Shown in pieces: positions 1,284-28,700 of a DNA stretch of 33,332 nucleotides (the first letter of the stretch is position 1; each line of letters starts with the position of its first letter). The stretch spans positions 62,001 through 95,332 of the forward strand of contig JYFJ02001019.1 in the NCBI GenBank assembly GCA_000934665.2. Direction: 5' to 3'. Under the pieces are notes generated by a model, which searched no databases, was not told where the DNA came from, and saw only the letters and a program-made list of their open reading frames with translations. The stretch is from Catajapyx aquilonaris (Eukaryota). Made by a program: the position numbers and the translations under genes.

Positions 1284-4200
1284 GTATATCCACATTCCAT
1301 CATATGTAGTAATGAGCCAGTTTAAGTAGAAGGATTCTGGACTAGTTATCCTGAGTTAGGAATCGCCTGAGTAATGTCACATTATAAGAGTGGGAAGGAT
1401 AATGATCACCATTTACATAGGGTACGGTATTCCAACTATCTGGGTCATGTTAGTTGTGCGATTTCGCTGAAGTTGTCATTTTTGTGTAGCATTGTATGCC
1501 CCAATCCAGGTGCTCAGTATTCCCAGGAGGGGTCAAATACAGCAGCTTCTATGCAGTACACTTGGGCACCTCAATTGGGGTGCAACAAAAAAAATAACAG
1601 CTTGGAGAAAATTTTTCCATAACTAAAAGAACCCACATAATTGGAACACACTGTATATCACCGTGGATGTGGCTTTGGTGCTCTGAAATGAAACTGTAGC
1701 CAGGGAAAAGAAATTTAACAGCCTTGTAGTCAGCCCAACTCACAGACAGACTTTGAATGCAATTTTACTGACATCCACAGTGAATGGCCACCAATTATTT
1801 TTATTATTCTTTTTTGTGTAGAGCCCTCCAAATATTTACAAAAAATATGAGATGGCACCCCCCCAATTAGGGTGAAGTTCTTATGCATGTTTCACATGAG
1901 AGATGAAGTTTTCAGTGACTGCTCTTTGCAGTTCCTACGACTACCTGCGAGAGCACTTCCGAGACACCCACTATCTCTGTGAAGATGGTGAATGCAGGAT
2001 GGAAGCCTTCACCTCAGTCTTCCGCACTGAGATTGATCTCAAGGGTAAGTAGGGCCTATGCCCATCACTGATTGGATCACAAAAGGTTAACTGTGGGACT
2101 CACATGTGCGTGTTCATACTTATAAATGGCTGTAAAGGGATGAGGCGTATCATTGCATCTTTCAAATTTTAAATTCAATTCTACCACTATTGATTAGCAA
2201 TATTTAATTATACTTCCATATCGTAACGTTGGCAAAGTAAAAAGTTGTGCCTAGTTTAAAAGCATGTATCATCACTAGACTTTTCTCGGCAGCTCATAAA
2301 GCATCAACCCATTCTAAGAATTTGGGTAAGGCAGCAGCGAAGCAAGCGAGGTTATTGGAGCTAGAATTCACTTTGGCTCCAAGAAGAGGTGAGGAAGAGG
2401 AGCGTAGAGGAGGGCGGAAAGGGCACAGGCGTGACCCTGGAGTTGATGTTGAAGCTGAACCACTACCAGGAGGGCTGGACACAGCAAGCCAGAAGGACTT
2501 TCCAACTCTACTAGGTGGTGGAGCAGGGAGGGCCCTTGTCCCCCAAGGAAGCATGGCTCACAGATTAGCTGTCAATAATGGGTTAACTGTTAGAACATAT
2601 CGGCCCAGAGCTAAAGCCGCCTTGGATGAAGAAGATTTCCCAAGCTTAGGGGCCAGTGTTGGTGCAAATCCCAGGCCAAATCCTCCACCTCAGCAGCGCC
2701 CAAATGTCTCCATACGTGTAAGTTCCTCAGGGGCTAAACCAACACAAGTTGCTCCTAGGGTTACCCGGATGACTTCAACTAATAACATCCGCTGGGCCGA
2801 AACTGAAGATTTTCCGGCACTTGGGCCAGGGACCGGGCGCTCCAGTGTTTGGACACCACACACAGGGACAGGAGCCTGGAGTGGAGGTGGACCTGAGTCA
2901 TCTTGTCCAAAAAATGAACCTGTCCAACCCACACCTGAACCAGAAAAAACGAAGCTGACCTCCTTAGCAGTGACACCAACATTTACAGCACTTACTAAGA
3001 GCAAGAAGAAAGCAAGTTCGGTAATGATTCCAGTTGGAGGTGCCAACTACTCCAATGGGGTCAAGAAGGTTGAGTCGGTGGATCCAGATCCAGAGCCTCC
3101 ACCCCAGGCAGCAAAATCAGAGCTAAAAGTTGGGTCACTCTCAAGAGCTAAGGGACCACCCCCTGGTTTTGCATCTGGGCAGAACCCACCACCTGGGTTT
3201 TCACCAAAGGATTCCCCAGAGCACTCGTACGTCCAGCCAGTAGACTTTCCCCAACGGAATAGGGATTTGGTGACTCTGATTAAAAGTTTGCTGGATGAGG
3301 CGGCATTTGGGCGTTTCCGGAGCCTCTCTGGAAAGTTCCGAGGCGGACAGCTGTCAGCAGAAGAATACTACTGGCAGTGTGTGGATGTGTTGGGGTATGA
3401 GTCATTTCGGCAAGTTTTCCAGGAGCTGCTGGTACTTCTACCTGATATCTCCAGGCAACAGGTTAGATTTTCAGTTTCACAATTTTTTGTATTGAATAAA
3501 CACTATTGTAGTTTCCATTGCCAAACTAGGGAAAAAGCAGAGGCACATTAGTATTAGTTTAATTTCTTTTGTGCAGAAAGTGTAGCTATCTCAGTAGATG
3601 GCTGCATTACTGTGACATGATTGAAAAAGGAAATTGCAGGTGTAAACGTGGCTCCCAATGGCTGTGGCCCAACATATTTGCTTTGAAATTCCTGAACTGG
3701 ATTTTCTACATGACATCAGGTTTATATTAGCATTTTCTTTGGATTATTAAGGTGTGTTTACATATGAGTCATTTGATTGTGCCATGTCATCGCTAAACGA
3801 TAACAACGCTGAGTAACCAGAATTGTTTGAGGCATATCTCGATTGTTACTTTCACCTCAAACAACATCAGTAACTCTTGTTACTCAGCGTTATCATCACT
3901 CGGTGAAGACATCGCGTGATCAAATTGCCCACATGTAAACACACCTTTATTCAGCATTTTCTCTGTTGCAGGGAGGTTAAGGCATGTGAAGAGATCGTTT
4001 ATACAGTCGAAATTTGTGTTTGAGGATCCTCAAGTCCCTTGTGTGAAATGGCGTAGAATTTGCACATAACCTAAGCACATCTTCCCATATTCTTTAAATC
4101 TTCTCTAGGTTACTTATAATACCTAATATGATGTAAATTAAATGATATGTGAGTAATTTTAGACTGGATTGTATTGCTTAGCATGTGGCTAATTCAAATT

Positions 4201-5544
4201 CTTCTTTTTGGAATGGACTTCAAAATTACTATTTTTAAAAAATCTTTCCATACACGGTTGGCTGAATTGCAGATGCAGAACCTGCAGATAACAGAGTGCT
4301 CACAGTATTTTGTGACCAAAATATCCTCTGTCAGTATAAATTGAACACAAGACCTCCAAGATGACATTAAATGAGACAGGCATGGGATTTTGATCTAAAT
4401 GAAGCTTTCACCAGAATTGCAATGAGATTTTAGTGCAGTGGCAGATGAGACATGGCTCTACGTAGGGCCAGTTGCACCGATACCGCGTGTGGCATATGAT
4501 AAACCCGCAGTTCTTTCGGAAAATTCATACAAATTTGTGTGGATTTTCTGAAAGAACCACCGGTTTATCATGTACGCTGGGTGCAACCAGCCCCTAGTCA
4601 CATGTTTGTTAAAGTAAATCAATGTAAGCAACTGAAGGGTTTGCAGTGTTGCAAGAGCTGCAATCAAACCATGATGGCCTAAGGCAGTGGCTCCCAACAG
4701 AGGTCCTGCAAAAAAAAATATCATATAGTGTCCTGCTTGTGCAATTTATTTGTGTTTATAGTTTGATATAAGTATCCCCAGTACTGGTTGAATGGTATTG
4801 CAACTCTATTTACTATTTCACTTTTCACTGTGAAATATTGCATATGACTAGTCACAAGAAGTAGTATGTATACTGACAAGTGAGTGTAAAGTTATGGATG
4901 CCTTCAGATGCCTCGAGCAAAAAAAAAAGGTAGCGAACCACTGACCTAAGGTGTGTCCAAGGAGTTTCCTGGCCCAACAAGGCCGAAACTGTCACAGGGC
5001 AGGAGTGGTCAGGAACACAAAGTGACCATCTTGGCCAGGTTGACTATCTGCAAAGAGGTCTCCTGGCTGGCCAAGGTTGTGGCCCAGGCATGCTCAATAA
5101 GCAGCCCTCCCCATGAACTGATCTCCCTCTCCCTCCCTCTCAAATCACCAAACTACTCGAGAGGGGTTAATGTGGTCACTGATGGTGGCAAAACAGAAGA
5201 AATCACCTTGGGCTGCCAGAATTAGACCCATAATGTACAGTACACTTTACCTGATAGTATTCAGTATTTTGGGGAAAACTGTTACCCATAGCATTCATTG
5301 TGCTTTCTCTCTCTCAAAGGCTTTGCTGACGGTTCACCGAACCTGGAGCAGGCGAGAGCAAGCCAAGGAAGAGTCCAGCTCATCTTTTGTGGAGTGTGCC
5401 ACCTGCGGACAAGTGCTCCTTTCAAGAGACCTGAAATCACATGTCACCACACACTCACTACACAACCACTTCCCATCACTACCAGCTGCATCAACGTCGA
5501 GAATCACTACAATTGGAAGCCAACAAAAGTCTTGGCGGAAGTAA
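823..5544 (+). CDS. ZNF598: E3 ubiquitin ligase ZNF598 (Hel2 homologue), 5'-partial; join(823..1283,1932..2044,2293..3461,5320..5544)
   Basis: The spliced frame is continuous across GT-AG introns (1968 nt including stop). It contains YSRKDLARHRRKGDPDDTSHRGHP-C-FCD, YLREHFR..HYLCE..C..F..VFRTEIDLKAH, PPPGF motifs, LLVLLPD..RQQ and a C-terminal CxxC zinc finger followed by FPSL, all characteristic of ZNF598. The RING-coding exon(s) are not in the window. Confidence 0.95.
1425..1653. mobile_element. Degenerate Tc1/mariner-type MITE
   Basis: Imperfect ~35-bp inverted ends (cggtattccaactatctgggtcatgttagtt / aactaaaagaacccacataattggaacacactg) with TA on both sides. Confidence 0.55.
1932..2044 (+). 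CDS. ZNF598: ZNF598 internal exon
   Basis: Acceptor gctctttgcAG, donor GTaagt at 2045; encodes SYDYLREHFRDTHYLCEDGECRMEAFTSVFRTEIDLK (too short for the ORF track). Confidence 0.93.
2293..3461 (+). CDS. ZNF598: ZNF598 large exon (low-complexity region, PPPGF motifs, start of C-terminal helical domain)
   Basis: Acceptor ttttctcggcAG, donor GTtaga at 3462; lies inside ORF 2247..3551 and its phases are compatible with the flanking exons. Confidence 0.92.
3750..3946. mobile_element. PIF/Harbinger-type palindromic MITE
   Basis: TIR aggtgtgtttacat / atgtaaacacacct, 3-bp TTA duplication (3747-3749, 3947-3949); the arms stay roughly complementary inward. Confidence 0.75.
4004..4305 (+). mobile_element. 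Tigger/pogo-type MITE resembling MER2/MER2B
   Basis: Starts TA-CAGTCG and ends ggttggctgaattgcagatgcagaacctgcagata...cacag-TA; the internal 4024-4138 segment closely follows my recollection of the MER2 consensus. Confidence 0.7.
4465..4593. mobile_element. PIF/Harbinger-type MITE (same TIR family as 25390-27356)
   Basis: TIR gggccagttgcacc / ggtgcaaccagccc; the interior is also self-complementary (atgataaacc..gttctttcggaaaat / attttctgaaagaac..ggtttatcat). Confidence 0.7.
4685..4943. mobile_element. hAT (Charlie-like) MITE
   Basis: Ends cagtggctcccaac / gtagcgaaccactg; 8-bp TSD gcctaagg (4677-4684) / acctaagg (4944-4951). Confidence 0.7.
5320..5544 (+). CDS. ZNF598: ZNF598 last coding exon
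   Basis: Acceptor ctttctctctctcaaAG; encodes ALLTVH...ECATCGQVLLSRDLKSHVTTHSLHNHFPSL...WRK then TAA. Confidence 0.9.
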   Translation, partial: ALLTVHRTWSRREQAKEESSSSFVECATCGQVLLSRDLKSHVTTHSLHNHFPSLPAASTSRITTIGSQQKSWRK

Positions 5545-6321: not shown

Positions 6322-9300
6322 CTGCAAAAATTATAGCAAATGTTAAACATGTATAGTTCTGGAATAATTACAAACTGCATTGGCAGAAGGGACCACTTTC
6401 ACAGCCCAGTCCTGAAGTACTTGACTGAATTTTTTCTAGGTGAAGTCGAATTCTGGCAACGTCCATGTGGGCAACCAACCTTTTCCGTGCCTATAACACT
6501 GGTTCCCAAACTTTTTTGGTCGCTGCCCACCTAATGAGCCATTTACACCTCGTCACCTCCTTACTGAGAGCTGCAAAAATCATGCTACACGATATATGTA
6601 TTGGTTTTTTTTTACGTACTGTGCTCTTGCTCCTCATTTCACAAGATCATTATTTTATAGTTTACAAAAAAATGTAAATCTCGCGGCCCATAGTTTGGGA
6701 ACCACTGGCCTATAAGCATCTGGGAACCAACCTGTTTTGGGATGGCCCAAACATCCCAGTGCAACCAGAGAAATAATTTAAAGATAGTCAGCTTTTGGAA
6801 GCAATATTCCTCGTGAAACTTAATCGACATTGGGAATGCAGAAGACACTTGCGAACTTGGGCTGACTATGCCTTGCCATTGCAACTTCACGTGTGTCACT
6901 ATGTCACAAGAGTCTCTGACATTCACAATTGTACATACAAGTGGGTGTTAAACCCTCTCCAAGCTACCCAACTGTTCCACCTACTTCTACAAGGCAGCTT
7001 CAAGGCAGCCACTGTGAAGATCGCAAAGGAATAATGGCCAACTACACCTGCAGTATCCTTGTAGAATATGGCCAATTCAATATTCCTTGGGCTCTCCCTA
7101 CACATCACTTGATTACAAACCTAGGGGAGCGGCTCCTAGATCGGCGCCTCTTTTCCCGTGAGGATGATCTAGATGACTTGGAGTGCCTGGATCGTGAATG
7201 GGATCTTGATCGAGACCTATGGCCTGAGCCTCCTCTCCTACCCCCATGGGATCCTTGCCCTCCCCCTCTGCCACTTCCATCACCTGGAGATCCACCTCTC
7301 CATTCTTCACCCCCACCACCAACTGCTCCTCCCATTGGCCCACCCATTACACCAGCCCTCCCACCCACATCATCCCTATCTCGATCATCCCTCTTCTTGC
7401 GACGGCGCTCCTCCACATTCTTCTGCAAGCAAAGAGAGTTAAAAAGATGCCATTAGTCTCATGTCACAGGGAAGAAGAATCAAGAAAATTCACGTCAGCA
7501 AGCCCTTTACGACTCCATTCTCTACCACAGCGTTTCTCAACATTTTTACCCTTGCGGAACCCCTGAAATAATATTCTCAGGAAATGAGGAAATCTCAGGA
7601 AACACCTTCAAAAAATTATTATATTATACTTTAAAATAATTTACATGTGATCAGCCTATGCAACACTATTTCTCGCGGAACGCCGGTTGAGAAACGCTGC
7701 TCTAGCATCTCCACAGCCATGTGCCAAATTGGCTTTCCCTCCCAAGCTAAACCAGAATTACAAGGGCGAATCAGAAAGTAATTGAAAACCTTTTTAATTC
7801 ATAAGTTTCACTAGAAAAACTGAAATTGTGATATACATATGAAAGGGCAAGTCTTTCTGTAATTTTAGACAAAATCACCATACACTTTGGTGCATTTGTC
7901 CCAGAGGGACACTAGTTTTCCCATACCGATGCAGAAAAAAGCGTCAGGCTGGGTGGGAAACCATTGGGGGATGGCCTCTTTCACTTCCTTGATGGCCTGC
8001 CTGGTGCTTCTTCATTGGTCTAAAGAGATGGTAGACCATTAAAACCACCTCTTTGGACCAAAAAAGAAGCACCTGGCAGGTCAGAACATCAGCGACATCG
8101 AGGAAGTGAAAGAGGCCATCCCCCACTGGCTTCCCACCCAGTCCGACACTTTTTTTCTGCAGGGGTATGGAAAAACTAGTGTCCTGCTGAGACAAATGCA
8201 CCCAAATGTATGGTGACTCTGTCTAAAATTAGAGAAAGACTTGTCCTTTTATATGTACAGGGTGTATCAGAAGTCAGTGCCTATTTTTATTTCCAAATAA
8301 CTTTCCAAAGGCAGTGAAACATGATTCAAAATGTGCAGGAAATCATGAGAATTTATCTGGGTGACACCTCATTGACACCTTGCTACTGTGTCGAGCACAG
8401 CTTGACACTTCTTCCGCGGGGGCGCTGTTAGCAGGTGCAGGTGGACACGTCTTTGTATGGTGGCGCTGATAACGCAGAGAGCGAGAGAGGTGGTCCAACA
8501 TTTTGTTCACAGCTGACCCTGTTATCAGCGCCACCACGGCAAGACGTGTCAACCTGTGCCTGATAACAGCGCCCTGCAGAAGAAGTGTCAAGCTGCACCC
8601 GACACAGTAGCAAGGTGTCACTGAGGTATCACCCAGATAAATTCTCATGATTTCCCGCACATTTTCAATCATGTTTCACTTCCGTAGGTGTCCTCGTTGT
8701 AAATGTATTCAGAAATAAAAATACGCCCCGACTTCTGATACACCCTGTATATCTCAATTGCAGTTTTTCTGGTGAAACTTCCGAATTTAAAAAGTTTTCA
8801 ATTACCTTCTGATTCGCCCTCGTATATTCTTGAAACATTTTAACTCACCTTGCATCATTATTTTATTGGTGCCTTTTTTCATGTAATACCAGTAACCAAT
8901 AGCTCTCGCGCCCATATTATATTTCACCTGATTGCAAGTTCAAGTAAGATTCAAGTGATTAATTATGCAAAGATCATGTATATGTGATCAAATCCAACAT
9001 TACAAGTACTGGATGTCATACTCCATTCTATGTTACTGTTCAGGTGTTGAGGTTTAAAGGTACACAGAACACAATGCATGATAACTCTACATGATGATAT
9101 GGGAGTTATGAAATAGTTGCACACCCCTACTTTTAACAGTAATGCGTCTGAACAGGTTCGGTAATTTTGGCATGAAAGATCTGTAATCCTTTAGGGACAT
9201 GGTTTAGAACTAATACTCACCTGCAGTTCTGCAAGCTTCTCCCTGATCTTGATGAACCCAAGATGCAGCTTCCCTCCAAAATGATCGGCCAGCCTACGAT

Positions 9301-12300
9301 CATTATCATGAATGCCGAGGTAAGCTGAGCAGACCTCACACACTCGTAGCTTCTGCTGCTGGTAGCTGGACGCAGGCATAGAGTTTCTGTACTCCTGCTC
9401 AGCTGCAGCCTTCCTCTTCCTCAAATCCTCAATCTCCTCCATGAGCCGCATGCTCTCCTCAACATGTCCTTCAGCACCCAGCTGCTCGGCCCGGGCCAGC
9501 TTCTTCCCGATCTGCTCTGCCAGCTCATGCACCTTGTTGGCCTTCGCTGCCACCTCTGCAGACAACTCCTCTTGGGTTTCAGCCAGTCGCTTCTTGGCCA
9601 ATTCAGTGCGCCGGTCACAGTCAGCTATGAATGCCTGAAGGTGCTCCATTGCCTGATTAACGAAACACAGTGAAGTTGGTACTTTCCATGAACAGGCTTC
9701 ATGTGAAAATGCCCCTAACCAACACATCACCAGCATGGGCTAGTCCCAAGCAGTTAATGGAAACAAACTGACTATTCCAGAAATTGTTGTTTGAAAAAAA
9801 ACCGTCCCATTATCTGACATGCAGTGACACCATCCTAGGCGGTCCCAGGGGCTGATAAAATCAAGTTTTCTTATATCTGTAAAGGACACTTAGGTGCAGT
9901 GCCGGACAGGAATAGTGAAGTACCGGTGGTCACCAGTATTTCACCATTCCTGTCTGGCACTGCACATTACTTGCCATGTAAAATGCAACTTACCTTTTAA
10001 TAATTTAAGCACTATCCACCTTAGAATACTTGACCTTTCAGTACAGAATATTTGGTATGAAAAACAAACTGTGAATAAAATGTTCATTATTTAAAAACTT
10101 ATTTTGCATGGTTTTCTGTACAAAATAAACAAAATCATAAATCAAAATCATAAAAAGGCGCTCTCATGCTATACCGGAAGAGTACTGCACACACTACTGT
10201 ACAGTAGTACACTACTTTGTACAGTACCCTACCGGTATAGCATGAGAGTGCCTGCTTCAGTGCAACCCGCAAGGCTAAAAAGCCGTTCAACCCGGTTCAA
10301 CCCACTACTGCACCTGCCAGTCCGAGCCAGTCAATTCGAACAGAAAGGATGTGACTTCATGTCATACGGCCATCATAAATAAATTGATTACTGCAGTATT
10401 TCTAATTGTTTTATAAAACCAGCCGGGGTTGTCGCCACCTACGATTTTTCCCACGCCCTCCCCGTGACTCTGAAACACCCTGTATAATTAGTCGACAACA
10501 CTTCTGGCCAACTTCGACCTCATCACCTATCAGGAGTCAGCATTTTTTGATTGAGTCTTAAACCCTAATTTTTAAAGCACATGTCAATGTCTCCGGATAT
10601 TGTTACTCACATCTATGTCATAGTAGTAGTCCTTCTCACTGCTGGCCTGCTCATAGTCAGCTCTCAAAGCCAAGTCGTGGATCTTGGGACAGTCTCCTAG
10701 GTCCATGCGCTGCCAAGGGGTGGAATTACAACAACACATGGTACATGCATGCTATCAGACTTCACTGTTATGTTGTTTTTCAAGTCACTAACATCTTCTT
10801 GCAAGGAATAAGCACAGCCCAGTCTTTTATGAATTACATTTCACTATTATTCCAAGCCAAGAGTTTGCCTCCTGTACCGATATACAGTACAGCATGTAAC
10901 CAGAATAAGTTTGTTGTAGCAGGTGTCTTTCATGCTGCTTATAAGGCCAGGAGTGCACCAGCACAAGTTTTGCTTGAAACCAGCAATGGGGCAACCCATC
11001 CTGAGAGTGTCTAAACTCCTTTATTCTATGGTGCTCACACGCCAGATGTTTCGGCCAAAAAGTGAAGCACCTGACTTGATACTGATGTCAATACACACTG
11101 TAAAGTTATGCTCATGTGTGAAGTTCAGAATAAACTTTCCATATAAGGCTTACATAATTGTAATCTGAATTTTAACCTAAACTATCTACAACAATTAACA
11201 AAATATGCAATGGAGCCTGTGCTGATCACTATAATTACGTGGCCAAATAAATTCAGCTAAGTTTCCAATTCCAGCATTCTCTGGGTTGGTATTTTATCCC
11301 ATGATCGGCAACATAGTGACATGTGATGATGGGTAGCTTATTCCTTGATTCAACGACAGTTTGCTACTCTCAATCCCCTCTCCCACAACAACTGGAAATT
11401 AAATTTTAAGAACAAAGTATATGTATATAAAAAAAGACGAGGACACAAAGTGTGTTTGAAAATTCCATTAAAAAGGTGTCTGAATAAGTTTCAGTCAGGT
11501 AGAGCAGCAAGACTTGCCGTGCCTGAGTTTTGGGAGCAGAGCAGGCAGACACACACTCAAGCAGGGCAGACAGATATGGGGAGTGTAGGCTCTTTACAAT
11601 TGTTGGTAATGATTGTTCACAGATCCTACAACAAACATCTGGCTAGAAAAAATAAACCCAAATTTTTGAGCCAACTCCCTATCCCATCCCGGGCACAGAC
11701 ACCAAAATTTCCAATGTTCACCACATTGCCAACCATGATGCTGCATTTAAAACAATTCCGATGATAACTCCAGCAGAAGTTGCTCAACTCTTCATAAGTG
11801 GTCTTATAGAACTGTCACACAGACACTGTAGAATGTACATGATACTAGAAAGGGTTGTACTATTCAAGTTGGTAGAGAATCATCAGGTTGCTTTTCTTGC
11901 AGAGCATCTTGGTTGACCCACACGTTCCTGTCTTCCTTCCCCACCTCCCCATCCAACAAGCCCTTCCAATCTTCAAACACAACTTGAACTCTGTAATTGT
12001 GCAACTCACGGTCGGTACGTACCCACAACACGCCCGACACTCATTAACCGGTCCACTTCTCCATTAAGCGAAGGACGGTTTGCTCCTCATCATCATGAAT
12101 CCATTGTGTGATTTGGTCCTCACAGCCAACCTCCCCAACCATCCCAGATATACGTACCCAACAATGCTTCCCTCCTTTGGACAAACTCTCTCACTCAGTG
12201 TGCAAGACACTGGTACGTACCCATACACCTCTTGACTCTGCATACGTGTGCCTCTTCAAAACAAGCACTCACACTCTCTCTCACATTCATACATATGTAC

Positions 12301-15300
12301 AACACATTCACTACGTACCAATTATTTCTCTACCGCCTGTTTTGTGTCTTTAAAAATTAACATATCCAGATTCACTTGTAGAGTGACAAGGAGAATGACA
12401 CTCACAGCTTTCAATCATTCATCCCCACCCTTCTGAGTAATACATGAAAAGAAATATGAGGCCAGCCACATGAGTCCATCAAAAGCATTGAACAGAAAGA
12501 GGCGTGCAATTAATGTATGATTGCCATTATTCTTACTGGCCTCTGAACCAAGGTCTTCTGCAGAATCAGGTTAAATCTCAGCTTTGAAAAATGTATTAAT
12601 GGTTCCCTCCCACCACATACCCAACAGGCCATTTTCTTAGTATACGTTTCCATTTCACAATACTGTACTTACCAAATTTGGGACCCTTCATGAATCGATA
12701 ATCAGCAACCCCAAATAGAGAAGACTATTTTCTTTTTTCTTTGGCGTTAATATACGTACAAGTCCACGCCACGACCTATACTTACAGAATCTTTCCCACC
12801 CCAGACACAAACAAATTGACCACCAACTCTGAAAGAGGAGCCAAAATGTCAGACTTTCCAGGCTCATGACACATACCTCACCCCAACACACACTTTCAGC
12901 CCACACTGTTGCTCCTAATCCTCTGCTACCAACTCTCTCTCTCTGGTCATATCAGGAAACCTACATCAAATCTAGTCCCAATTCTGTACTCAAAGTAATG
13001 TAATACACTGAACCTGAATCAGATCTCGTTCGCAATAATTTCCCAACTACATGACAATTCACTCCCCTTGCAAAGTGATCAAATACCAAATCCCCACATT
13101 CATCAATTGTAGATTCCTATATAATCCATAATTCACAGACATGTATCAACTGAAGCGATCTACTATTGCATCCCTTTTGGATTGCATCAACTGCATGGAC
13201 TGCAAAATAATAGATTCCTCCTAGGCTAATTTTTGTTACAAGCCACTATAATTTTTAACAGACTTCATTGATAATGATATCAGTTACATAAAAAAGGGAC
13301 TCTGTTTAATCCTATTGTGATACTGCTAAATTTTACCTTTGAAATTCACACATACGTAATTTTAAATATTAAACTGCCAGTAATGCTAGCCACCTTCAAT
13401 AATTGGTTTCAATATGAGAGATGACAACTGATTTTTCAAGTAGTCGTGTATTGTTTGCTATGAGTTACAATTTTAATTCAATTATGCAACGCTGGTTGTA
13501 CTGTGTGATGCTCCTTCAAACGGGGTGACACAATGGGATATGGGAAACCAAACTTCTTTAAATGATAGTTTCAGTGAACAATCAGTGGTCTAAAATCAGT
13601 AATTTCTACCAATAATAATCGAAAAATTGAAATATCTTCCATGCTAGTCACACCAGTGCAGTGGCTATTTTAATTTTTTAAAAATTTCAAGCTGTAATTA
13701 CAGATTTTTGAAATACCGGAATTCATAGGACAAAACTACGCTTCTGCCTTGGATCTACAGGGTGGTCGGTAAATGGCGCACAAGCTTCAGGTAGCGAGAT
13801 TACTTGTGAAAAACCAGTACATGGTAGTGAAGGTCATATTGCTCTACGATGCCTGGTTAGGGTTCACAAGCTCTCCAAAGTTTGGACCAAATCATGATGT
13901 CACATCCGCCCGCGAAATTCAAACACTACCGTATCGCTGCCGTACGTGGTGTGTTGCTAGGCGTTGCCGTGTTGACACCCCCCACATTTCCATCCGACAA
14001 TGGAACGGTATAAACTTGCCGGGATGTTGCCAGGCATTGCCATACCTTCGTCGCCGCGTGCCTGGTAACATCCCTGCGAGTTTATACGGTTCCATTGTTG
14101 GGTGAACATGAGGGGGATGTCAACATGGCAACCCCTGGCAACGAACCACAGACAGTAGCAATATGGTAGTGTTTGAATTTCGCGGGTGGATGTGATGTCA
14201 TGATTTGGCCCAAACTTTGGAGGCCTCGTGAGCCCTAACCAATATGACCTTCACTTCCATATACTGGTTTTTCACAAGGTATCTCGCTACCTGAAGCTTG
14301 TGCGCCATTTACCGACCACCCTGTATATTTTTTAAAAATCTCCACTAAAAATTATCATGCTCCACCAAAAGAAGCACACCTTTGAAATTTATTTATGAAC
14401 CCTTCACGAACCACAAAATGAAACAAAATGCGCCATATCATTCTCCCGCAAAAATATTAATGTACATGTGTGGGCTTGAAAAGATGAGTGCAAGAGGTTG
14501 GTGCAGGGTAGGCTCCAATCGAATTATTATTCTCCAGGCATAAGCCTGAAGTTTTGATATGTTCCAGGGTCAAAGTGTCAACTTACCGTTGAGGACAGGA
14601 TCTCATGTGGGCAGCATCCCAGCAGAAAGCTCTTGCACACACGTGGATCAGAAAACTTCACCTGAAACCGGTTGTTCTCTCCTGAAATTGAAAAACAATT
14701 TAGCTCCATTGCATTGCTCTAAATATTACAGCCTAACTCACTCACACTATCAATTTAAATCCTAATGGAATTAGTGTTTTCATCTCCATTAATAAGTAAA
14801 ATGCATTCATAAAAACCTGTATATTCCTTTATGCCAAATAACCCTACCAGACATCCTGAGCATGAACCTGGCTAGCACATTATTCTGACTGCTTCAAGTG
14901 CAAGCAACAATGCTGACAAAATTCAGTCTCAAAGCGCGTACGCTATTCTCCCCTGTCTTAACTTAATTATGCCTACCCTATCCTAATGCAACAAGCATAT
15001 TAAAGGTGGTTTACTACCCACCTGTTGTTATTTCAAATCTGTGCCATGTCACAGTTTCTTGTATTGGCAGCATGATCAGTAAATACCGGCATTTCCAACC
15101 CTTATTCCCTTCCCTCAACACGTTCCAGAGCATAATTTATATTGAGCTAATATTGCAACTAGAGCATTACATCAATTCTACGATTGGCCTGGGCTATACG
15201 TATATAACACCTTGGAGGGTGAGCTCACAAGTGCATCAGTGTCTGCTTAGCCTGAAAATTAATTCTCAAGTCCCTACTTGAAAGCAAGAGGTAAAACCTG

Positions 15301-18012
15301 GGGCCAAACCTTTGAGGCGAGGGTTCAGATAGCAATGTGAATTTTAACACAGTCCTACATACACATGGCCTGGCAGGGTTGAACCAAAATGTCGGAGTCG
15401 AGTCCGGATTTTTAGTCGCGACAAAACCCTGAAATAGGCACTTAAGAGCACTCTCTAGGCTCGGCAACCCATTGTTGCGGGGAGCCCGTCGCGGCCCGGC
15501 CCGTGAGTTTGACACTTCTTCCTCTCACTGTCACGGTCGCAAATATGGAGGTATCGGCATGAAACTGGAGTATCTGGACGCAAAAGAGTTGCACTTTGAG
15601 ATGGTGGGTTTATTTTTCTCCCGGGGCGATATTTGCGGTCGCCGCGGCCAGGTACAGTTTTTTTATTTTGACCCGCAATCACTCCTTTCCATGTCGGTAC
15701 CAGTGAGATTCGAGACCATCACGAGGTTTTTACGCCGAATTACCGTAAGTGTGTGAAAGGGCACGAGTGTGGCAGTCTTGGTTTGGCCAAACTTTGGGAC
15801 GAAAAATACCCCATGAACAATAAGAACTCGCACGAAGAACGCGACGATCTGGCAGCGCCGCGCTGACTGCCAGCTCCGTAACCACGGCGACGGGGATAAG
15901 GTAGAGCGCTAATTATTAGAATTAGGGGCCTAGTCTAGTGACCCAGGGTAAGCTTGCCCAGGGGCAATCACCATGGAAGCATATGAAAAAGGATAGCAGT
16001 AAACAACCAGTTACCCCAGGGGGCAAGCTACCCCGGGTCACCAGACTATATACCTTAATGGCTGGCCACTGGCGGCGATCGAGTCATGTACCAAGATGGT
16101 AGCGCCTTACCTAGCGGCCAATTCTGAAACATTTGGGTCGACTCCGATTGACTGGAGTAGAACAGGAGGCATTTAAGACTCCAGCCAATTGGAGTGGACC
16201 AACATGGTTCAGAATTGACTGCTAGGTAATACCATCTTGGTACATGACTCGATCGCCGTGGCCACCACCCCTTGGTAGGGGAGAACAGCTAAGCTCACAG
16301 GTGTAGCAATGTATAATGTATACAAGTGACTGGGGCTGCTCTGAACTCTACCACTTACAGCGCATTTCCACTTGCACAGTTTGTTACCAAATATTTTCTA
16401 GATTATCCTCTGATTGGAACCACCTTCCGGCTCATACGTGTCACAGCAACATGATTCGTATTACTTCTTAACCATTTTGATCCTTTCAAAAGCACATAAA
16501 ATAGTCTGCAAAAACACCAAACATACCTCTGAAGGAATAGGTCTGGAATAGGCCCAAAAAGTCTCGGAAATTGCTTCAGAAAGTTCAAAAACAACACCAC
16601 CACCATCACGACATTACCCTATAAGGGGTAGTCAGCAATGAAGGGAGACACTAGTTAACCCCACATATTAACTAAATTAAAACTTGTCAAAATAAAACTA
16701 TAAACTACCTGTCCCATCCCCTCCCTCTATACCTCCATCCTCCTCTATTTCTCTTCCATGAACTTTTTCCATGGTGACATGGAAAAAGTTCAAAAACCAT
16801 CCCAAAATAGGCATGAAACGGCTCAAAATGCTAGAATTGGCAGAATAGTTCCTAAAACCATAAAATAGGCAATTTGAGGCACTATAAAACATACACTTTC
16901 CACATCCTGCACTTATGAACTACAGTAAAACTTCTACAGAAGATTCGAGTTAGAGAAGTTTGGATTTTTTAAAACACACAACTCTATAAGGAAGCCTGCC
17001 TTTATATCCAGCGACGAAAGGTGTTCAATAGTTAGAAATAACCATCATGTAACACTTACAATGTTTCTCGTTGATTTGTTGTTAAAAAAAACTCAGTTAC
17101 GGACATTTGCCTACTCTTAGATTCAAGAATTCAATTGTCACAATCGAGTCAAACACTTCTTTCGGTACGTCTGGTAGATGGAGATCAGGAAATTGAACCT
17201 TTCTGTACATGTGGCCTACTCTCTATACCCTTTGGCTGGGAAATGAGAAAATTTTCCGTACTCGCCAACATGAACTTCGACTTAGGGAGACTGAAAATGC
17301 ATTGAAATCCCATCATAAGGACCTTCCAGCACTTATGGAAATTCGAGTTAGGGAAGTTTATTTCCTGTTATTTTACATTGTGAGCAACCAAGCTCATCAT
17401 TTTCTTCAACTTATAGAGAACTTCCAACTTGGGGAAGTTCGACTTGCAGAAGTTTTACTGTACATATATCTCTTCACAAAACCATCCCAACTGCAAAGGA
17501 ACTAAATAGGCATTTGCCTAAAAATCCGGACTTTAGTCGTGAGCAACAAACACGTCTTTTTGCATGAACTACTGTAAGAGTTATAGCTAATTTACAACGG
17601 CAAATCTCCTTTGGATGGATACTATTCCGTGGACATCCATTCTGCTTGCTACTAATTTGGAGCATTAAATTCAATGCAGGTTGCACTTTACAAGTAATTT
17701 CACCATAGGCAATAAAATTCAAATTGAATCCAAAGCAAATAGAATTCCGTAACATATAGGGCAACATTCCTACAAATGCAATTAAAATTAAACTACGCGT
17801 GCAAATGAGAAGGCAATGGTTAAGTGAGGGTTGGTCTCAACGAACCATGTGGCACCGTACATACAAATGTATCAACACTGCCCATACGAGGCCCCTCCCG
17901 CTAGGCCTAGTTGGGAAAGGCAGTGATATGTAAGTGTTCGATCCCACGTACCGTTCCGGCCCGTGCCCATGAGCTGGTCAAGCATAGCCCTGATCTGGTC
18001 GTGGGCCGACAT
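6183..18012 (-). CDS. LUC7L: Luc7-like U1 snRNP protein (LUC7L/LUC7L2 type), 375 aa; complement(join(6183..6321,7121..7422,9221..9652,10611..10709,14587..14681,17952..18012))
   Basis: The spliced frame (1128 nt) reads MSAHDQIRAMLDQLMGTGRNG-ENNRFQVKFSDPRVCKSFLLGCCPHEILSST-RMDLGDCPKIHDLALRADYE...KLRVCEVCSAYLGIHDNDRRLADHFGGKLHLGF...RS domain. Both LUC7 zinc fingers are present and all introns are GT-AG. Confidence 0.96.
6497..6707. mobile_element. hAT (Charlie-like) MITE
   Basis: TIR cactggttcccaaact / agtttgggaaccactg; perfect 8-bp TSD gcctataa (6489-6496, 6708-6715). Confidence 0.88.
7121..7422 (-). CDS. LUC7L: LUC7 coding exon 5 (G-rich and RS region)
   Basis: Acceptor ctctttgcttgcAG, donor TAG/GTTTGT; KNVEERRRKK...RSRSRSP. 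Confidence 0.88.
7528..7699. mobile_element. hAT MITE
   Basis: TIR cagcgtttctcaac / gttgagaaacgctg; 8-bp TSD ctctacca / ctctagca. Confidence 0.85.
7761..8822. mobile_element. Palindromic mariner-derived element (host of 8258-8747)
   Basis: TIR caagggcgaatcagaaagtaattgaaaac / gttttcaattaccttctgattcgccctcg, TA flanks; ~230-bp arms are complementary once the inner insertion is removed. Confidence 0.85.
8258..8747. mobile_element. Tc1/mariner-type palindromic MITE nested in 7761-8822
   Basis: TIR cagggtgtatcagaagtc / gacttctgatacaccctg; TA duplication; long complementary arms. Confidence 0.88.
9221..9652 (-). CDS. LUC7L: LUC7 coding exon 4 (coiled coil and second zinc finger)
   Basis: Lies inside ORF 9191..9736; acceptor ttcgttaatcAG, donor CAG/GTGAGT; 432 nt. 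Confidence 0.95.
9891..10316. mobile_element. Possible degenerate DNA-transposon MITE
   Basis: Short inverted ends aggtgcagt / actgcacct; no convincing TSD. Confidence 0.35.
10611..10709 (-). CDS. LUC7L: LUC7 coding exon 3
   Basis: Acceptor ccccttggcAG, donor GAT/GTGAGT; 99 nt; RMDLGDCPKIHDLALRADYEQASSEKDYYYDID. Confidence 0.93.
12004..12876 (-). promoter_or_regulatory. Cluster of 12 5'-splice-site-like hexamers in LUC7 intron 2 (putative splicing-regulatory/decoy array)
   Basis: Sense-strand GTGAGT/GTAAGT/GTACGT/GTATGT with the G of GT at 12876, 12785, 12759, 12672, 12620, 12405, 12318, 12272, 12220, 12157, 12022 and 12009. Confidence 0.65.
13758..14323. mobile_element. Tc1/mariner-type palindromic MITE
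   Basis: Perfect ~43-bp TIR cagggtggtcggtaaatggcgcacaagcttcaggtagcgagat; TA flanks; the whole element folds back imperfectly. Confidence 0.92.
14587..14681 (-). CDS. LUC7L: LUC7 coding exon 2
   Basis: Acceptor tttttcaatttcAG, donor ACG/GTAAGT; 95 nt; VCKSFLLGCCPH. Confidence 0.93.
15931..16048. mobile_element. Small MITE / inverted repeat
   Basis: Arms tagtctagtgacccagggtaagcttgccc / gggcaagctaccccgggtcaccagacta. Confidence 0.7.
16063..16264. repeat. ~200-bp foldback palindrome (MITE-like)
   Basis: cggcgatcgagtcatgtaccaagatggta / taccatcttggtacatgactcgatcgccg; complementarity continues to a short central spacer near 16160-16175. Confidence 0.8.
16593..16784 (-). mobile_element. Very short 3'-end retrocopy related to the RTE element at 18934
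   Basis: ~16600-16714 matches ~18943-19055; 13-bp TSD aaagttcaaaaac (16580-16592, 16785-16797). Confidence 0.75.
16923..17460. mobile_element. pogo/Tigger-type MITE
   Basis: TIR cagtaaaacttct / agaagttttactg with TA flanks; internal repeats of ttcgagttag(a/g)gaag. Confidence 0.8.
17952..18012 (-). CDS. LUC7L: LUC7 coding exon 1
   Basis: gcagccATG start; MSAHDQIRAMLDQLMGTGRN; donor ACG/GTACGT; 61 nt. Confidence 0.93.
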
Positions 18013-18350
18013 GGCTGCTCTCTCTCCCGATCCAGACAGCCAAAAACCCAAAGAGAAGAAGAACCGGGGACGGGGATCGACAAGCCTTCTTCTCCCAGCA
18101 GCTATCGCCGAACGGACGGACTGGTTGGTGGGACTGGACTGGGAGACAGAGACGCTGGTGACGTCACAAACCAACCCTCCCCAACGATTTGGCAAATGGA
18201 ACGAACAGAGACTGTTTGTAAAAAGCAGGAGCGAAATCAGACAGAAATGCTCTACTCAGGCCGGTAGAGGGAGGCCATGGAGAAGCTTTGCCATGGAGCT
18301 TCGGAGAGAAGCGACGAGAGGGCGTGCGCTGCTCTGCTGGAGATGAAATT
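18013..18350 (-). promoter_or_regulatory. LUC7 5'UTR/promoter, CpG-rich, with palindromic CRE-like site GTGACGTCAC (18158-18167)
   Basis: GC/CpG-rich segment directly upstream of the ATG; contains a perfect TGACGTCA motif. The transcription start cannot be determined. Confidence 0.45.
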
Positions 18351-20067: not shown

Positions 20068-20987
20068 CGAGGGGTGTTATATAAGTTCGTGGTTTCAAGT
20101 AGACATACGCGAGGCATGACAAAGAAACTATTTTATTTCTCAACATAGTCCCCACACCGGTCAATACACTTGTCCATCTTCGTGGCAACTTCTCCAAACC
20201 GCTCCGGTAGAAGGAAGAATGTCACCCCACCAAGACGTCCTCCACAGCTGCCTTGACCTCTTCGTCACTCCCATGGAGTCGACCCCGTAGGTGTTTCTTC
20301 ATGTTCGGGAACAGGTAGAGGTACCCAGGTTTCATCCTGTGTGACCAGACAAGCGTAAAATCCTTCTGCATCAGCATTCAGCAGGTGCAAATTTGATTGC
20401 GACATCTCCCGACGCACCGCCTTCTGTTCTGGCGACAACATTCGGGGTACCCATCGTGCTGACACCTTCCACAGGCGCAGGTGGTCATGTAGTATGGTGT
20501 GGATGAAAATTGTTGAGATGCCCACCACCTCAGCAAGGTACCTGATAGTCAGTCTTCGGTCTCCCATCACTAGTTCCTCCACTTTGGCCACATTTTCTTC
20601 AGTGGTGGAACACACGGGTCTTCCGGAGCGGGGGTCGTCTTCTAGGCTGTCTCGGCCTTGTTTGGAGAGGGCAGTCCACTTCTGGATCATGCTGTATGAT
20701 GGTGCATCGCCAGCCAATGTATCCTTCATGTCCTCAAAGATGTCCTTGGCACCCATTCCCTTTGCCACCAGGTACTGGATGACCGCGCGATGTGCGATGT
20801 TCGCCATCTTCACAATATGCTGCACACCCTTTCACATCCGAATTATTTCTGAACCCAAGGACTTTGACACCTATGTCAATTGGGTGGATATAGGGGTTTG
20901 AAGGGTGGCTCGATTTAATGGCGCTGTTTAGCTTCCGCATTTGCTTCTCCTTCTAGGCGAAACCACGAACTTATATAACACCCCTCG
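20068..20987 (-). mobile_element. Mariner transposon, internal-deletion derivative (920 bp)
   Basis: Perfect 29-bp TIR cgaggggtgttatataagttcgtggtttc; TA duplication; removing the element rejoins the RTE frame (..RNKDLS..). Confidence 0.95.
20265..20807 (-). pseudogene. Truncated mariner transposase (DNA-binding domains, WVPR motif and first catalytic Asp only)
   Basis: MANIAHRAVIQYL...LEDDPRSGRP...DRRLTIRYLA...KVSARWVPRMLS...LVTQDETWV, then a jump out of frame into the C-terminal YLFPNMKKHLRG..SDEEVKAAV segment. Confidence 0.88.
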
Positions 20988-22715: not shown

Positions 22716-25700
22716 CTGCAACAAAAAATATAAACACCAGTTACAATTTTGTCTACATGCTGTACGTGCTGAAGTATGAAGAGTAGGTCCCTGTTCATTG
22801 TAAACCCACCCTTAATAATTATATGAAGTGGAATGAGGAATACTTCACTCCTGCCAGAAGGGTTTAGCACATTTTAAAAATGGCTCCAACTAGTGACCTC
22901 GTATACCTGTCAATAAAACTCGGCAATTCAAATTGGCATAATCTAGAAAGTTCATAGCCAATTAGGGCCTCAAATGATCCATCCAAAGGTCAACAGAAAA
23001 TAGATTTCATAGCACCTGAGAGTAACTGTGCAAAAAGTAACTTATTAAAAATTCAAAATGCTACAGACAATATTCAGTTTACTACACAGGAGCTAAACTG
23101 GCAGTTTTGTACTATTCCCTCATGAGTATCATTATATGACATTAACGTTACGGTGATGCCATCCAGGATATATTCCCCTGGCAGTTGGCACCAGTGGGCA
23201 GGGATTAACATATGACATCATTTCCACTCACCTGCAAAGGTGTGAATGCAACAGATGAGGCTGTTCCAGACACATGCTTCTTGACACTAGTTGATCCTCC
23301 CCACACTTGCTGCTGTCTCTGAAGATTCTTCTGCAGTGCTTTTGAAATCCTGACCTTGGTTTTCTCATCAATCTGTGCCATTCTGACTTTCCCTGCACCA
23401 GCTTTACCCAGCTGACCCCTGCTGTATCCGAGGTCAGCTTGGTAGGCATCATCTTCAATCTCTCCAAAGCTGATCCGGTTTGCCTGTTTGCGAAGCTCCG
23501 TAACGGCATACCGCTCTTTCATCTTCCTCACTCTTCGACCACCTCTTTTCTTACGTGGTGGATCAACAGGTTTGGGAAGAGGTTTGACTGCTTTTACTGG
23601 TGGTGGTTCTTGGAGCTTGTCCAGCTTCTTCTCAATCTCTTCCCTCATAATCTTTCCAACACTCCCATCGCTGCACTCATGAAATGCATCAACACGTGCA
23701 GCCATAGTACACTTATTGGCAACTAGACGTGCTGCTTTTCGATGCATATCAGAAGGAGTGCCCTGAACTATATGAGAATGGTACACAAATCCAGTGTGTG
23801 GTAGGACTGCAGCATGGTTGAACCCAGATGGAGCTTTCCGTTGGGCGCCAAGGACAAGGACGTTGCATGCAGGCATCTTGGATAGCTTGGTCAGTCCACC
23901 AGCCACTCCTGAATGAGGTTCAGAAAACAAGAACAATTAAACACTGAAACAGGATCATGAACCTGCCTCAGTCACCCCTGGGCAGTTCTTGCCATGCCCC
24001 TCCCACTGGAAGTGGTCTTTGCCCTGGTCAGGCTGGGCAAAGACAACCAACAAGTTATCCTTCTCCCTGGCAGGTCAGAGAAAATCTCACCTTGTCTCAT
24101 CTTGTAACAATAACGTGCATGTCATCTACATATTCCATTATTTAATTCTGGTGGTGGAACTCAGCAAGAAAACTGGCATGATGGCATCTACAGTATATCC
24201 ATTGGTCACAGATCTGTGATCCGAAATCACAGATAGGTAGCCTGCTACCTAAGCATGTTGAAACCATTGCAAGCAAATGCTTCTATTTCCGAGTTGCAAA
24301 AACATGATCCTCAGTCTCATTATTTTGTATTATTCAAATTCATTATTAGGGAGATGACATGATGCTGGAAAATGGACACTTGAGCCCAGGGGCCATTTAT
24401 ACAGTTCTGGGAAATCTGGACTCATTTCAGAAGTGATCTGGTTCACAAAATGAAGCATTTATGATGAATGGATGATCATTGGACCATTCACTGGATCAGG
24501 TCTCCTCCCTGCATTGTCCCCAGCTATTGTCTTTGCCAAATTTCAATAACTCTCCAGCAACACACAAATGATTTGCCCTCATCACCATTGGAAATCACTA
24601 ATTGGAAAGACCCTAGCAAAAATGTTACATCATGAGGCTGAAAGATAGTTTTCCTTGCCAGCCTTCCTCTCGCCATGGTGATACAACATACTTCACTCAC
24701 TTGACATAGCCTGGTTTAAATCCAGTTGCTCTAGATCCCAACCTATGGGTCATGAAGCCTTTCTCAGGGGGTTGCACAGTTATTTTTACTGGCAATAAAT
24801 TCCGTCGAAAAATTTCACCAGGATTTAAACACTTAATTACATGTTTTAATATGTATACACTAGCCTACATCAATCTTGCTGGGGGGGTTTGTTGCCGGAT
24901 ACTTGACCATTATAAAAGGGGGTCATGACCCGAAATACGTTGGGAACCACTGATCTATATGAAGTCCAGGTCAGAGACGGTTGAAAATGCAATGTAATGA
25001 ACCTGCTCTGGAACAAGTTTCTTCGGTGGTGTGTAAAAATTGCCCCATTGTAAGCACATTTACGTAGATAAATACAAAGAAAAACTGGTAATGATCCTCA
25101 TGACCCAATTACCGTATTACCTCTCATAAACCAGCATGCTGAAATAACCCGGGGATGGCCGGAATGCCGCAATAGCCGAGGTAGATTTCTGTAATTTTGA
25201 TTCTTGCCAAATTATTTGGAATGCTTCTGGTACCGTTCTAAAATAATGTTATAATGAAAATGGGCGAGTATACAGGCTGAGAGAATATGCAAGTTCTGTC
25301 CAGTGCATATAAAAAATGTAGTGTGTGAGACAAATTCCATCATTAGCCTGCTTTGACAGGGGAACCCCCTGCTCCAACATACTGTTTAAGGGCCGGTTGC
25401 ACCGGTTGTGGTATATGGGAAGGTATATTTTTTATTTATTTATTTATTTTTTATTTAATTTACCCCGTGATCGTGGCTCATTTTGGGGGACAAAACCACA
25501 TGTGTATTACATACAGATTAGGTATGTGTGCATTAATGCTCATTTGTATTTACAATTTTGATCACGTTTTGAAAAAAGGTGAACAATTTATGAACATCTG
25601 GTTTTTGACTATTGGTGAAGAGCATCAAGATCTGGTCAGGTGGAAATTTAGGTATATCAAACAGGTGTTTCCGCCTTGGAGGTATGAACAAGGGGCACTC

Positions 25701-28700
25701 GTAGATTATGCGAAAAATTGAACAGTTTACCTGCCAATTGCACCATACACACTGTTCCTCTGATTCTATTTTAAATTGCTCGTTTTGTTTTAATTTTATA
25801 TAGCGGGAGTTATTTCGCAAATTCGCTAACAACCGAATGTGGGATATTGGCAGGTCTATCTTAAAATAGCTTTCTCTCTGGAATTCGTCTTTTACCTCTT
25901 TGTAGCTTATATATCTACTAGTTTTTTGTAGTCTGTTTATTAAATCATTTTTAAGCGCCAGTTCAATTGTTTCAAGGATCTTTGGGAGCTCATCTGCCGA
26001 CTTTTTCCAATTTGCTGCTAGAGGTTGGAAGGTTTTCGAACAACTTGCCAGCCAATTTAACCTGTTTTTCGGGCTTAATTCTTTTTGTGTGGTGTATAAG
26101 TATGCTGCTTTAAGGAGTTCATTTTTTGAGTTTGTTTCTATATTAAGTATAAATTTAAGTGTTGCTCTGGCAACATTTAAAGTAAGTGGGATTACTCCTG
26201 TTTCTAAATAGACAAAGTATGCTGCTGTCGTCCGTGGTAGGTTCAAAAACTTCTTTCGGAAGTAAGTTTGGACCTGGAGTATCTCTGCTAAGTGCTGGGG
26301 TCCCCATATTGGGCATGCGTACAATAGGACTGGCACAATGTGGGCATTGAAAAGTTTCAATGCCACCATGAGGTCTCTAAGTTTCAATTTAATGAAGACC
26401 GGCCAGAGTGAATTTATTGCGGCTATAGCCTTTCTTTTGAAAAATTCCGCTGCCTCGTTCATTTTGCCGGAGCACTTAAAAGGGACCCCTAGATATGTAT
26501 AGGATGATTCGTTTTTAATTTTTTGATCTTGCCAGAAGAAAGTTTTCCCGGGTTTTCTTCCACCCTTGTGGAAGCAAACAAGTTTGGTTTTGTCTAAGTT
26601 TATTTGTAGCTCGTTCTCTCTAAAATATTCAACTAATATATTTATATTTCTCTGCATATAACATGGGTTGTCTGTAAGCAGTATTATATCATCCGCGTAA
26701 GCCAAAAGCAATATATCCTCTTGTCCTGGACCAAAATTTACACCTTTAGCACCTGCGGCTGCTAACTCTGCATGGAGATCCGCTAAATATAGATCGAATA
26801 GGAATGGGCTTAAAGGTTCACCCTGTGGTAGACCTGTCGTTATCTTAATTAGCTCTGTATTGTGTTCCGAAACTATACTATGGGAAGGTATATGAAAGAA
26901 CCCTGCACCGCGGGTACCCAGTATAAACCATGAAAAACCGCGGGTTTATTCTATAGCGTTGCACCGGTCCAGATAAACGCGGGGTTATCAGTAGTACACT
27001 GGCCCATGAGACGTAAGTGGGCAAAAATTTGGGAGAGCGCTGATTGGATCGCAGCACCTGTGGCGTCATGGAAGTATGGCTAGTCGTCTAGTATCTACGG
27101 CAACCATGTGGCAGGGTAGCCACATGGTGTCACACAATTCATGAAATCCCTAGCACCAGTCCGCAACCATGACGACACCCATAAACCCGCGGTATAAGCA
27201 ACTTGCGCTGCTGGATCGGCGGGTAGATGGATCCGGCAGTAAATGGGAGGGAGAACGGGCCGTTTTAGAAAAACCGTAGGTGGCGCAACACTCCTCGCGG
27301 TATATCGGAGTGAAAACCCGCCGTTTTCCATATACCGCGGCCGGTGCAACCAGCCATAAATAGAGATGATTGCCAGACCCTGCAATTAAAAACAATAATG
27401 GAACGGGTGCCCTATTCAGAAAATGTGCCTTTTCGATAGGCTTGATGTGAATTTCAATTTTCAGGCAAATGTTAAGTTCGGAAAGGATAATGTAACTTAG
27501 GTCAAAACCTCACCTTATACCGGCATACCTCACCTTATAATGGCATGCATGTATAGTCACCAAATCGCGCATTTCTAAAAACTGGTTGACCTCGACTACA
27601 TTGGCATGCCGCTTTATGTGAGGTAATACGGTATGACAGAAACAAATGAACCTCGATGTCATATTTTTACAAAATCTGGCAAAGCACTGATTTTGAAATT
27701 GATTTAATTCCTTGCAAGTTAGTGATTATTGTAAATTTTCATGTTTTCAAGTTTTGTCAGAGTGTTTACACAGCTCTAATATTTGTAACTATATTATTGA
27801 GTAGTTCTGTAATGCAGGCCTACTTTAAACTAACATTGTTTTTTACCAAGCCTTTTCATCAGAATAATATATTTATTTATTTATATTTATTTACCCCATT
27901 GTTACCCTTTCGGGTTTGGGGGGGGGGGGGGGGGNCCGATTACATCAGAGCCGCTCCGGAGCAGTAGAGCCGGGTGCGGAGCGAGTCTGGAGTTTCTTTG
28001 GGAGCTTGCCAGCTTGCTCCGGAGCTGGACCCGGTTACGGAGCGGGTTCAGAGCGGTTCAGAGCTTGGTTAGGTCATACATTCCAACTCAACGGGTGGAA
28101 AGGCAGTAAAACCGCTGGATTTACTCCAGCGTATGTGTCATGTTTTCATGCTGGCAGAATGACTTTCCAAGCACCCGCGATACAGGGTGTACCGTAAATG
28201 TCACATTTTTATGTCATACACATTCTTGTATGTTACAATAATTACGTCATATGCATTTTTGTATGTTACAATAATTATGTCATATGCATTTGTTGTATGT
28301 TACAATATGATATTGTAACATACAAAAAATGCGTATGACATAAAATGTGACATACAACAAATGCATACGCCCATTAGCTCTTGGTATGACATGAAAATGT
28401 GACATCCAAAAAATGGGTATGACATATTGTGACATCCAAAAAATAAGTATGGCATATTGTAACGTACAAAAAATGCGCATGGCATAAAAATGTGGCATGC
28501 AACAAGTCCGTATGACATGAAAATGTGACATCCAAAAAATGGGTATGACATAATTATTGTAACATACAAAAATGTGTATGACATAAAAACGTGACATTTG
28601 TGGTACACCCTGTATTGCAGATGCTTGGAAATGTCATTCTGCCAGCATGAAAACATGATGCATACGTTGGAGTAAATCCAGCGGTTTTTCTGCCTTTCAA

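Follow-up and report, generated by a model that had tools for sequence, protein, structure and literature searches.

One important question raised by this locus is whether a mammalian-type transposon lies within an arthropod gene and, if so, whether it got there by transfer between phyla, as had been proposed in an earlier note on this DNA. The pogo/Tigger transposases bind the terminal repeats of their elements, cut the elements out and paste them into TA sites. A Tigger-type miniature transposon of about 300 bases, decayed and flanked by TA, was found at positions 4004–4305 (forward strand) of the window, i.e. the whole 33,332-nucleotide stretch of DNA that was analysed, by means of profile, blastn and alignment, and it belongs to the main 336-bp form of a family present throughout the genome. 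A profile made from 22 family copies (the window copy included) aligned exactly to 4004–4305; the letters quoted in the earlier note begin at 4024. The right target-site TA is located at 4306–4307 and the probable left one at 4002–4003, an assignment that rests on reading positions 4004–4009 (forward strand) as all that remains of the left-hand terminal inverted repeat (TIR). Comparison with full-length copies indicates that about six bases of this TIR survive and that about 47 bases after them have been deleted. The decayed right TIR, of about 24 bases, occupies positions 4281–4305 on the same strand, as judged from the window sequence and from the inverted ends of the family consensus. Both the TA-flanked element and its decayed Tigger 3' terminus, as previously described, were therefore found where expected. 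A TIR pair was looked for inside the window and was not found, because the left repeat is reduced to those six or so bases. The copy is also immobile, because the approximately 47 bases after the sixth are gone and most of the left repeat with them. Identity to the family consensus was 79% by blastn (4024–4303) and 75% in the 41-copy alignment. The element is short and non-coding, with no open reading frame of at least 70 amino acids over it, and an Rfam search over 3900–4400 returned a single match at chance level (E 0.98). As a relic of a non-autonomous pogo/Tigger DNA transposon, the window copy is inert and shows no sign of function.

The surroundings of the element were then read from sequence and homology. 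A ZNF598 exon with the PAH domain (2292–3461, forward strand, 5' boundary approximate; PF23202, E 1.5e-15) ends immediately before a GT, and the last coding exon of the gene, with a C2H2 finger (5320–5544, forward strand; PF23208, E 1.4e-08), starts after an AG in the same frame. This arrangement places the element in a predicted GT-AG intron of phase 0 and 1858 bases (3462–5319, forward strand), and the ZNF598 intron named in the earlier note is borne out to that extent. Matching sequencing runs numbered five, from two studies, with no RNA run among those listed. A possible 3' splice site lies at 3960–3971, where the reading frame requires no exon. Two further repeats share the intron, namely another miniature inverted-repeat element with 79-base arms at 3746–3950, with relatives in the flanks of two family loci (L084 and L087), and a hairpin-like element at 4465–4593, with abutting arms of 38 bases and outer arms of 14 bases. 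Among the matches listed for the zinc-finger exon (120 of 672), every named protein was from an arthropod, at 52–68% identity, and stick insects, horseshoe crabs, spiders and beetles were about equally near. In a ZNF598 tree (157 columns, 45 rows) the host appeared to fall outside the sampled insect orders, the chelicerates and the malacostracans. On ZNF598 homology the host is thus arthropod-like, with no close relative in the database, in agreement with the arthropod character already ascribed to the flanks. Elsewhere in the window, all on the reverse strand, a LUC7-like gene (7100–18100) and a Prp31 gene (23205–30600) were recognised, as well as a Mariner-like transposase remnant (HTH_32, 20265–20831) and a reverse transcriptase frame of 470 amino acids (RVT_1, 25533–26945), both of which are inside or between host genes. 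The observed/expected ratio of CpG was 0.35–0.5 over the first 12 kb, which suggests gene-body methylation.

The element is one of many. When it was used as query, 23 matches were obtained in its own genome, and a fuller copy gave at least 41 (40 of 75 candidates scored). A terminal-repeat pattern gave 27 matches, as against none for the reversed control, and at least 59 distinct loci remained among those fetched after removal of duplicates. A genome-wide consensus, one of the checks suggested in advance, was built from 41 copies; it comprises 335 columns plus the first base, i.e. the 336-bp main form. The consensus ends are inverted repeats matching at 20 of 24 positions, and the TIRs, of about 20–24 bp and starting with CAG, are those of a pogo/Tigger MITE. 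TA was present at 35 of 51 scorable ends (19 of 30 on the left and 16 of 21 on the right), according to a hand count that covered the loci from the DNA search and left out those found by the TA-bearing pattern. The copies are about 77% identical to the consensus, with a median divergence of 21% outside CpG sites, and are 65% alike in pairwise comparison (median of 584 pairs). At 17 consensus sites CpG has decayed to both TG and CA, which is the decay pattern of methylated DNA. The copies of this family are old. One of them (L010:1349–1732) is a palindromic rearranged copy, with two left halves tail to tail and the right end outside.

A resident family of this size bears on the suspicion that mammalian DNA had contaminated the assembly or had been mis-joined in it. 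The junctions of the window copy are known from the assembly sequence alone, which leaves some room for this explanation. Against it, further repeats known from the window or from host transposase loci recur in the flanks of 23 of the 55 other loci, other host elements break up several copies, and the window copy has TA at both ends and sits inside an arthropod intron; moreover, the arthropod forms differ from the human form described below. Because of the many loci, the host repeats in the flanks and the copies split by host elements, the family is, on the evidence of the assembled DNA, part of the host genome, and the likelihood of contamination is close to negligible. Exact and degenerate family patterns gave no match in viral contigs, GTDB genomes and metagenomes, collections that are mostly microbial and hence uninformative. 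One copy (L025) compared by blastn with plasmids and phages gave no match either.

A mammalian relative was provided by the human lncRNA ENST00000563647.1 (981 bases), printed in Table S2 of PMC6578592, which holds a complete, TA-flanked 342-bp relative of the arthropod family; the element goes unnamed in the available portion of that article. It came to light when six short motifs of the family were sought in full-text articles; two of them are present exactly, so that the search is biased toward a good match. We take this 342-bp copy to be a probable MER2, an identification backed only by its length and divergence. In the comparisons made here it stands for human MER2, a 345-bp element that belongs to the Mariner/Tc1 class in Repbase and to MER2_type/Tigger in RepeatMasker.

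When the human copy was aligned by eye with the arthropod consensus, 110 of the first 140 positions matched without gaps; 20,000 shuffles averaged 36 matches and never exceeded 57, and the likeness, as far as these letters tell, is not due to chance. The by-eye alignment continued with 55 of 59 matches at consensus positions 141–205, with three short indels, and with 48 of 67, ungapped, at positions 269–335. In total, 213 of 266 positions (80%) agree between this one human copy and the consensus, again by eye, and 198 of 235 (84%) when the 31 inferred CpG columns are set aside. The left 205 and right 67 bases are collinear, and the best-conserved non-coding block (4024–4175, forward strand, in the window) is common to all forms of the family and, by eye, to the human copy. 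The similarity runs through the non-coding interior; confinement to the TIRs, which had been named beforehand as an outcome that would speak against transfer, was not what the alignment showed. The two also have decayed CpG sites in common, and of 16 CpG sites that were deduced from the arthropod copies alone and could be compared, 12 are TG or CA in the human copy. On the same columns, native copies scored by leave-one-out had a median identity of 77% (range 69–84%), with 7 of 37 at 80% or more. The human copy hence fits the arthropod consensus as well as the native copies do, although this sets a pairwise by-eye alignment of the sole mammalian copy compared, which favours the human copy, against copies scored in a multiple alignment. 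Between the window copy and the human copy 63 of 84 ungapped positions agreed (75%), the median for the other arthropod copies there being 72% (35 copies).

These values can be set against the published divergence of the human families. MER2 (345 bp) has a median divergence of 18.5% from its own consensus and MER2B (336 bp) of 19.2% (from the accessible part of PMC1914374). Since the human copy lies 20% from the arthropod consensus, and MER2 copies 18.5% from their own, we infer that the two ancestral elements were only a few percent apart. An identity of 80% in non-coding sequence (by eye), as against 65% between copies within one genome, is far above what the divergence of the hosts would leave. 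Descent from a bilaterian ancestor, with the sub-terminal sequence kept by transposase binding, would require precisely such preservation. Sub-terminal regions can carry binding sites. Tigger elements occur in many animal groups (PMC9219625, as far as available). However, vertical descent would have to account for 80% identity over 266 non-coding bases, mostly ungapped, in a family whose copies in this genome are only 65% alike, and the activity of human MER2 has been placed near the divergence of the placental orders (PMC1914374, as far as available); it is accordingly a very improbable explanation. Non-coding identity of this degree is too high to have survived the arthropod–vertebrate split, and therefore the parent of the two families most probably moved horizontally.

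The internal structure of the copies indicates what kind of element would have moved. A middle block of the human copy is absent from the window copy and from the main arthropod form, which carry instead an internal block (block Q, at 4176–4215 of the window, forward strand) that the human copy lacks. The human-type middle block is nevertheless present in 11 longer arthropod copies, and 42 of 48 positions agree between the human copy and one long form (L087). Four copies (L157, L051, L050 and L085) exceed the human copy in length and combine its middle block with blocks that it lacks; in the first three of them both blocks are present, with more sequence between. In none of the 11 block-bearing arthropod copies does the block run directly into the right end, which is its arrangement in the human copy. 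Judged against this one human copy, the window copy lacks an internal block of MER2 type abutting the right end, and it is not MER2 itself, because the human internal block is absent. The MER2 likeness claimed in the earlier note must hence be divided: homology to a human repeat through the non-coding interior stands (213 of 266 by eye), but the window copy should not be equated with MER2. The window copy is rather, as its sequence would have it, a sister deletion derivative of MER2, alike in the way it works and with a shared origin. MER2B may share the block at 4176–4215, in which the earlier note saw a likeness to that variant (4182–4215), the agreement established here being one of length (336 bp).

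As the window copy is without the human internal block and longer arthropod copies have it, the miniatures appear to have arisen separately from one parent, and the simplest reading is that a longer parent was active in both lineages and was shortened separately in each. Alternatively, a finished mammalian miniature (MER2 or MER2B) could have moved from a mammal to the arthropod, where a resident transposase multiplied it. The listed length of MER2B, 336 bp, is also that of the main arthropod form, a likeness of length alone, and non-autonomous elements can transfer. A finished miniature would not, however, explain the four arthropod copies of greater length than the human one that contain its block together with blocks that it lacks, nor the absence of the human junction from all 11 copies, and this route is considered unlikely. 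The element that moved was most likely the autonomous parent, and it is very probable that this parent crossed between phyla horizontally, either directly or via other hosts. Cross-phylum transfer, as originally suggested, is accordingly retained as the best explanation of the non-coding identity (80% by eye) in a resident family, with the parent as the element that would have moved.

A parent with the family ends was searched for in the genome. None was found near 50 of the 54 DDE_1 loci, a search that could have passed over a parent with 20% or more decay, nor near the other Tigger-like frames given by a Tigger-protein search, and walking outward from the interiors of the long copies yielded only further short copies. 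This tells somewhat against the proposed transfer of a parent. A single-copy, intact Tigger-type transposase frame (L059:829–2544, G000:C1465) was considered as the parent and rejected for now, as neither its flanks nor the 18 kb around it contain the family ends, and no terminal repeats were seen. Among 8,000 candidates scored, its best relatives were from elephant (68%), dugong (66%), opossum (63%) and lizards (61–63%), as compared with 48% for the nearest named arthropod protein, and it fell among amniote relatives in a quick tree. Its neighbours are MATH-BTB-like genes and host repeats; it has a possible splice acceptor just upstream and gave no match in viral contigs. We take it to be Tigger7/MER44-like. 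It is possibly a domesticated gene, and its affinities suggest that Tigger elements were exchanged with amniotes on more than one occasion. In translations, the surrounding loci L158 and L159 (G000:C1465:28500–48585) appear as a tandem array of MATH-BTB (SPOP-like) frames. Six other loci (L053, L056, L058 and L060–L062) contain intact pogo/Tigger-like frames of 500–590 amino acids, some with changed catalytic motifs and with no terminal repeats seen; they are candidate domesticated transposases.

The following course of events would account for these observations. An autonomous Tigger element almost the same as the MER2-type source would, as the parent, once have been active in this arthropod lineage, where its transposase bound the 24-bp terminal repeats and moved elements into TA sites. 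Gap repair would have generated nested, internally deleted forms of about 140, 336 and 450–600 bp, which spread. The parent would then have died out and its copies decayed, fastest at CpG sites; the window copy, having landed in the ZNF598 intron, would have been stripped of most of its left repeat. Early placental mammals would have been reached by the same parent, which would there have given rise to a separate set of miniatures with different breakpoints.

Transfer of DNA transposons between arthropods and mammals is already an established phenomenon. MER2 and MER2B are listed under Mariner/Tc1 in PMC5753468 (available part), and Tigger transfers between Eutheria and arthropods have been reported (PMC9219625). 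In what is accessible of the latter, the superfamily, the TA target and the pair of host groups are the same as here; unlike the present case, the work used autonomous elements and transposase distances. MER2 does not occur in the available text of PMC9219625, and three family motifs gave no match in its supplement, the long entries of which were covered in part. Transfers of Mariner-1_Tbel and Mariner1_BT between insects and mammals have also been described, Mariner_Tbel being dated to 100–69 million years ago (PMC3517439, available part). Those cases too involve a DNA transposon common to insects and mammals, but, as described there, they concern Mariner rather than Tigger, a few mammal lineages and computed consensus identities above 95%, whereas the comparison made here was by eye. 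Like the human copy, the arthropod family is TA-flanked; unlike it, the window copy and the main form have another middle block, and the main form is 336 bp long against 345 bp for MER2. The literature searched, with subscription journals and Repbase reports outside its scope, yielded no account of an arthropod family of MER2 type. The presence in an arthropod of a Tigger miniature family of mammalian type is real and well supported, although not fully computed.

The human genome contains thousands of MER2-type repeats, whose activity fell around the placental radiation (PMC1914374, available part). Tentatively, and with a good deal less confidence than the transfer itself, this arthropod lineage or a close relative may have been the reservoir from which early placental mammals received the MER2 parent. 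The longer copies would then keep pieces of the parent that link the human miniatures, L059 would have entered in the same way and been kept as a single-copy gene, and Tigger exchange with amniotes would have taken place more than once. The near-identical arthropod family is a concrete place to look for the source of the MER2-type invasion, and its longer copies help to rebuild the untranslated ends of the parent.
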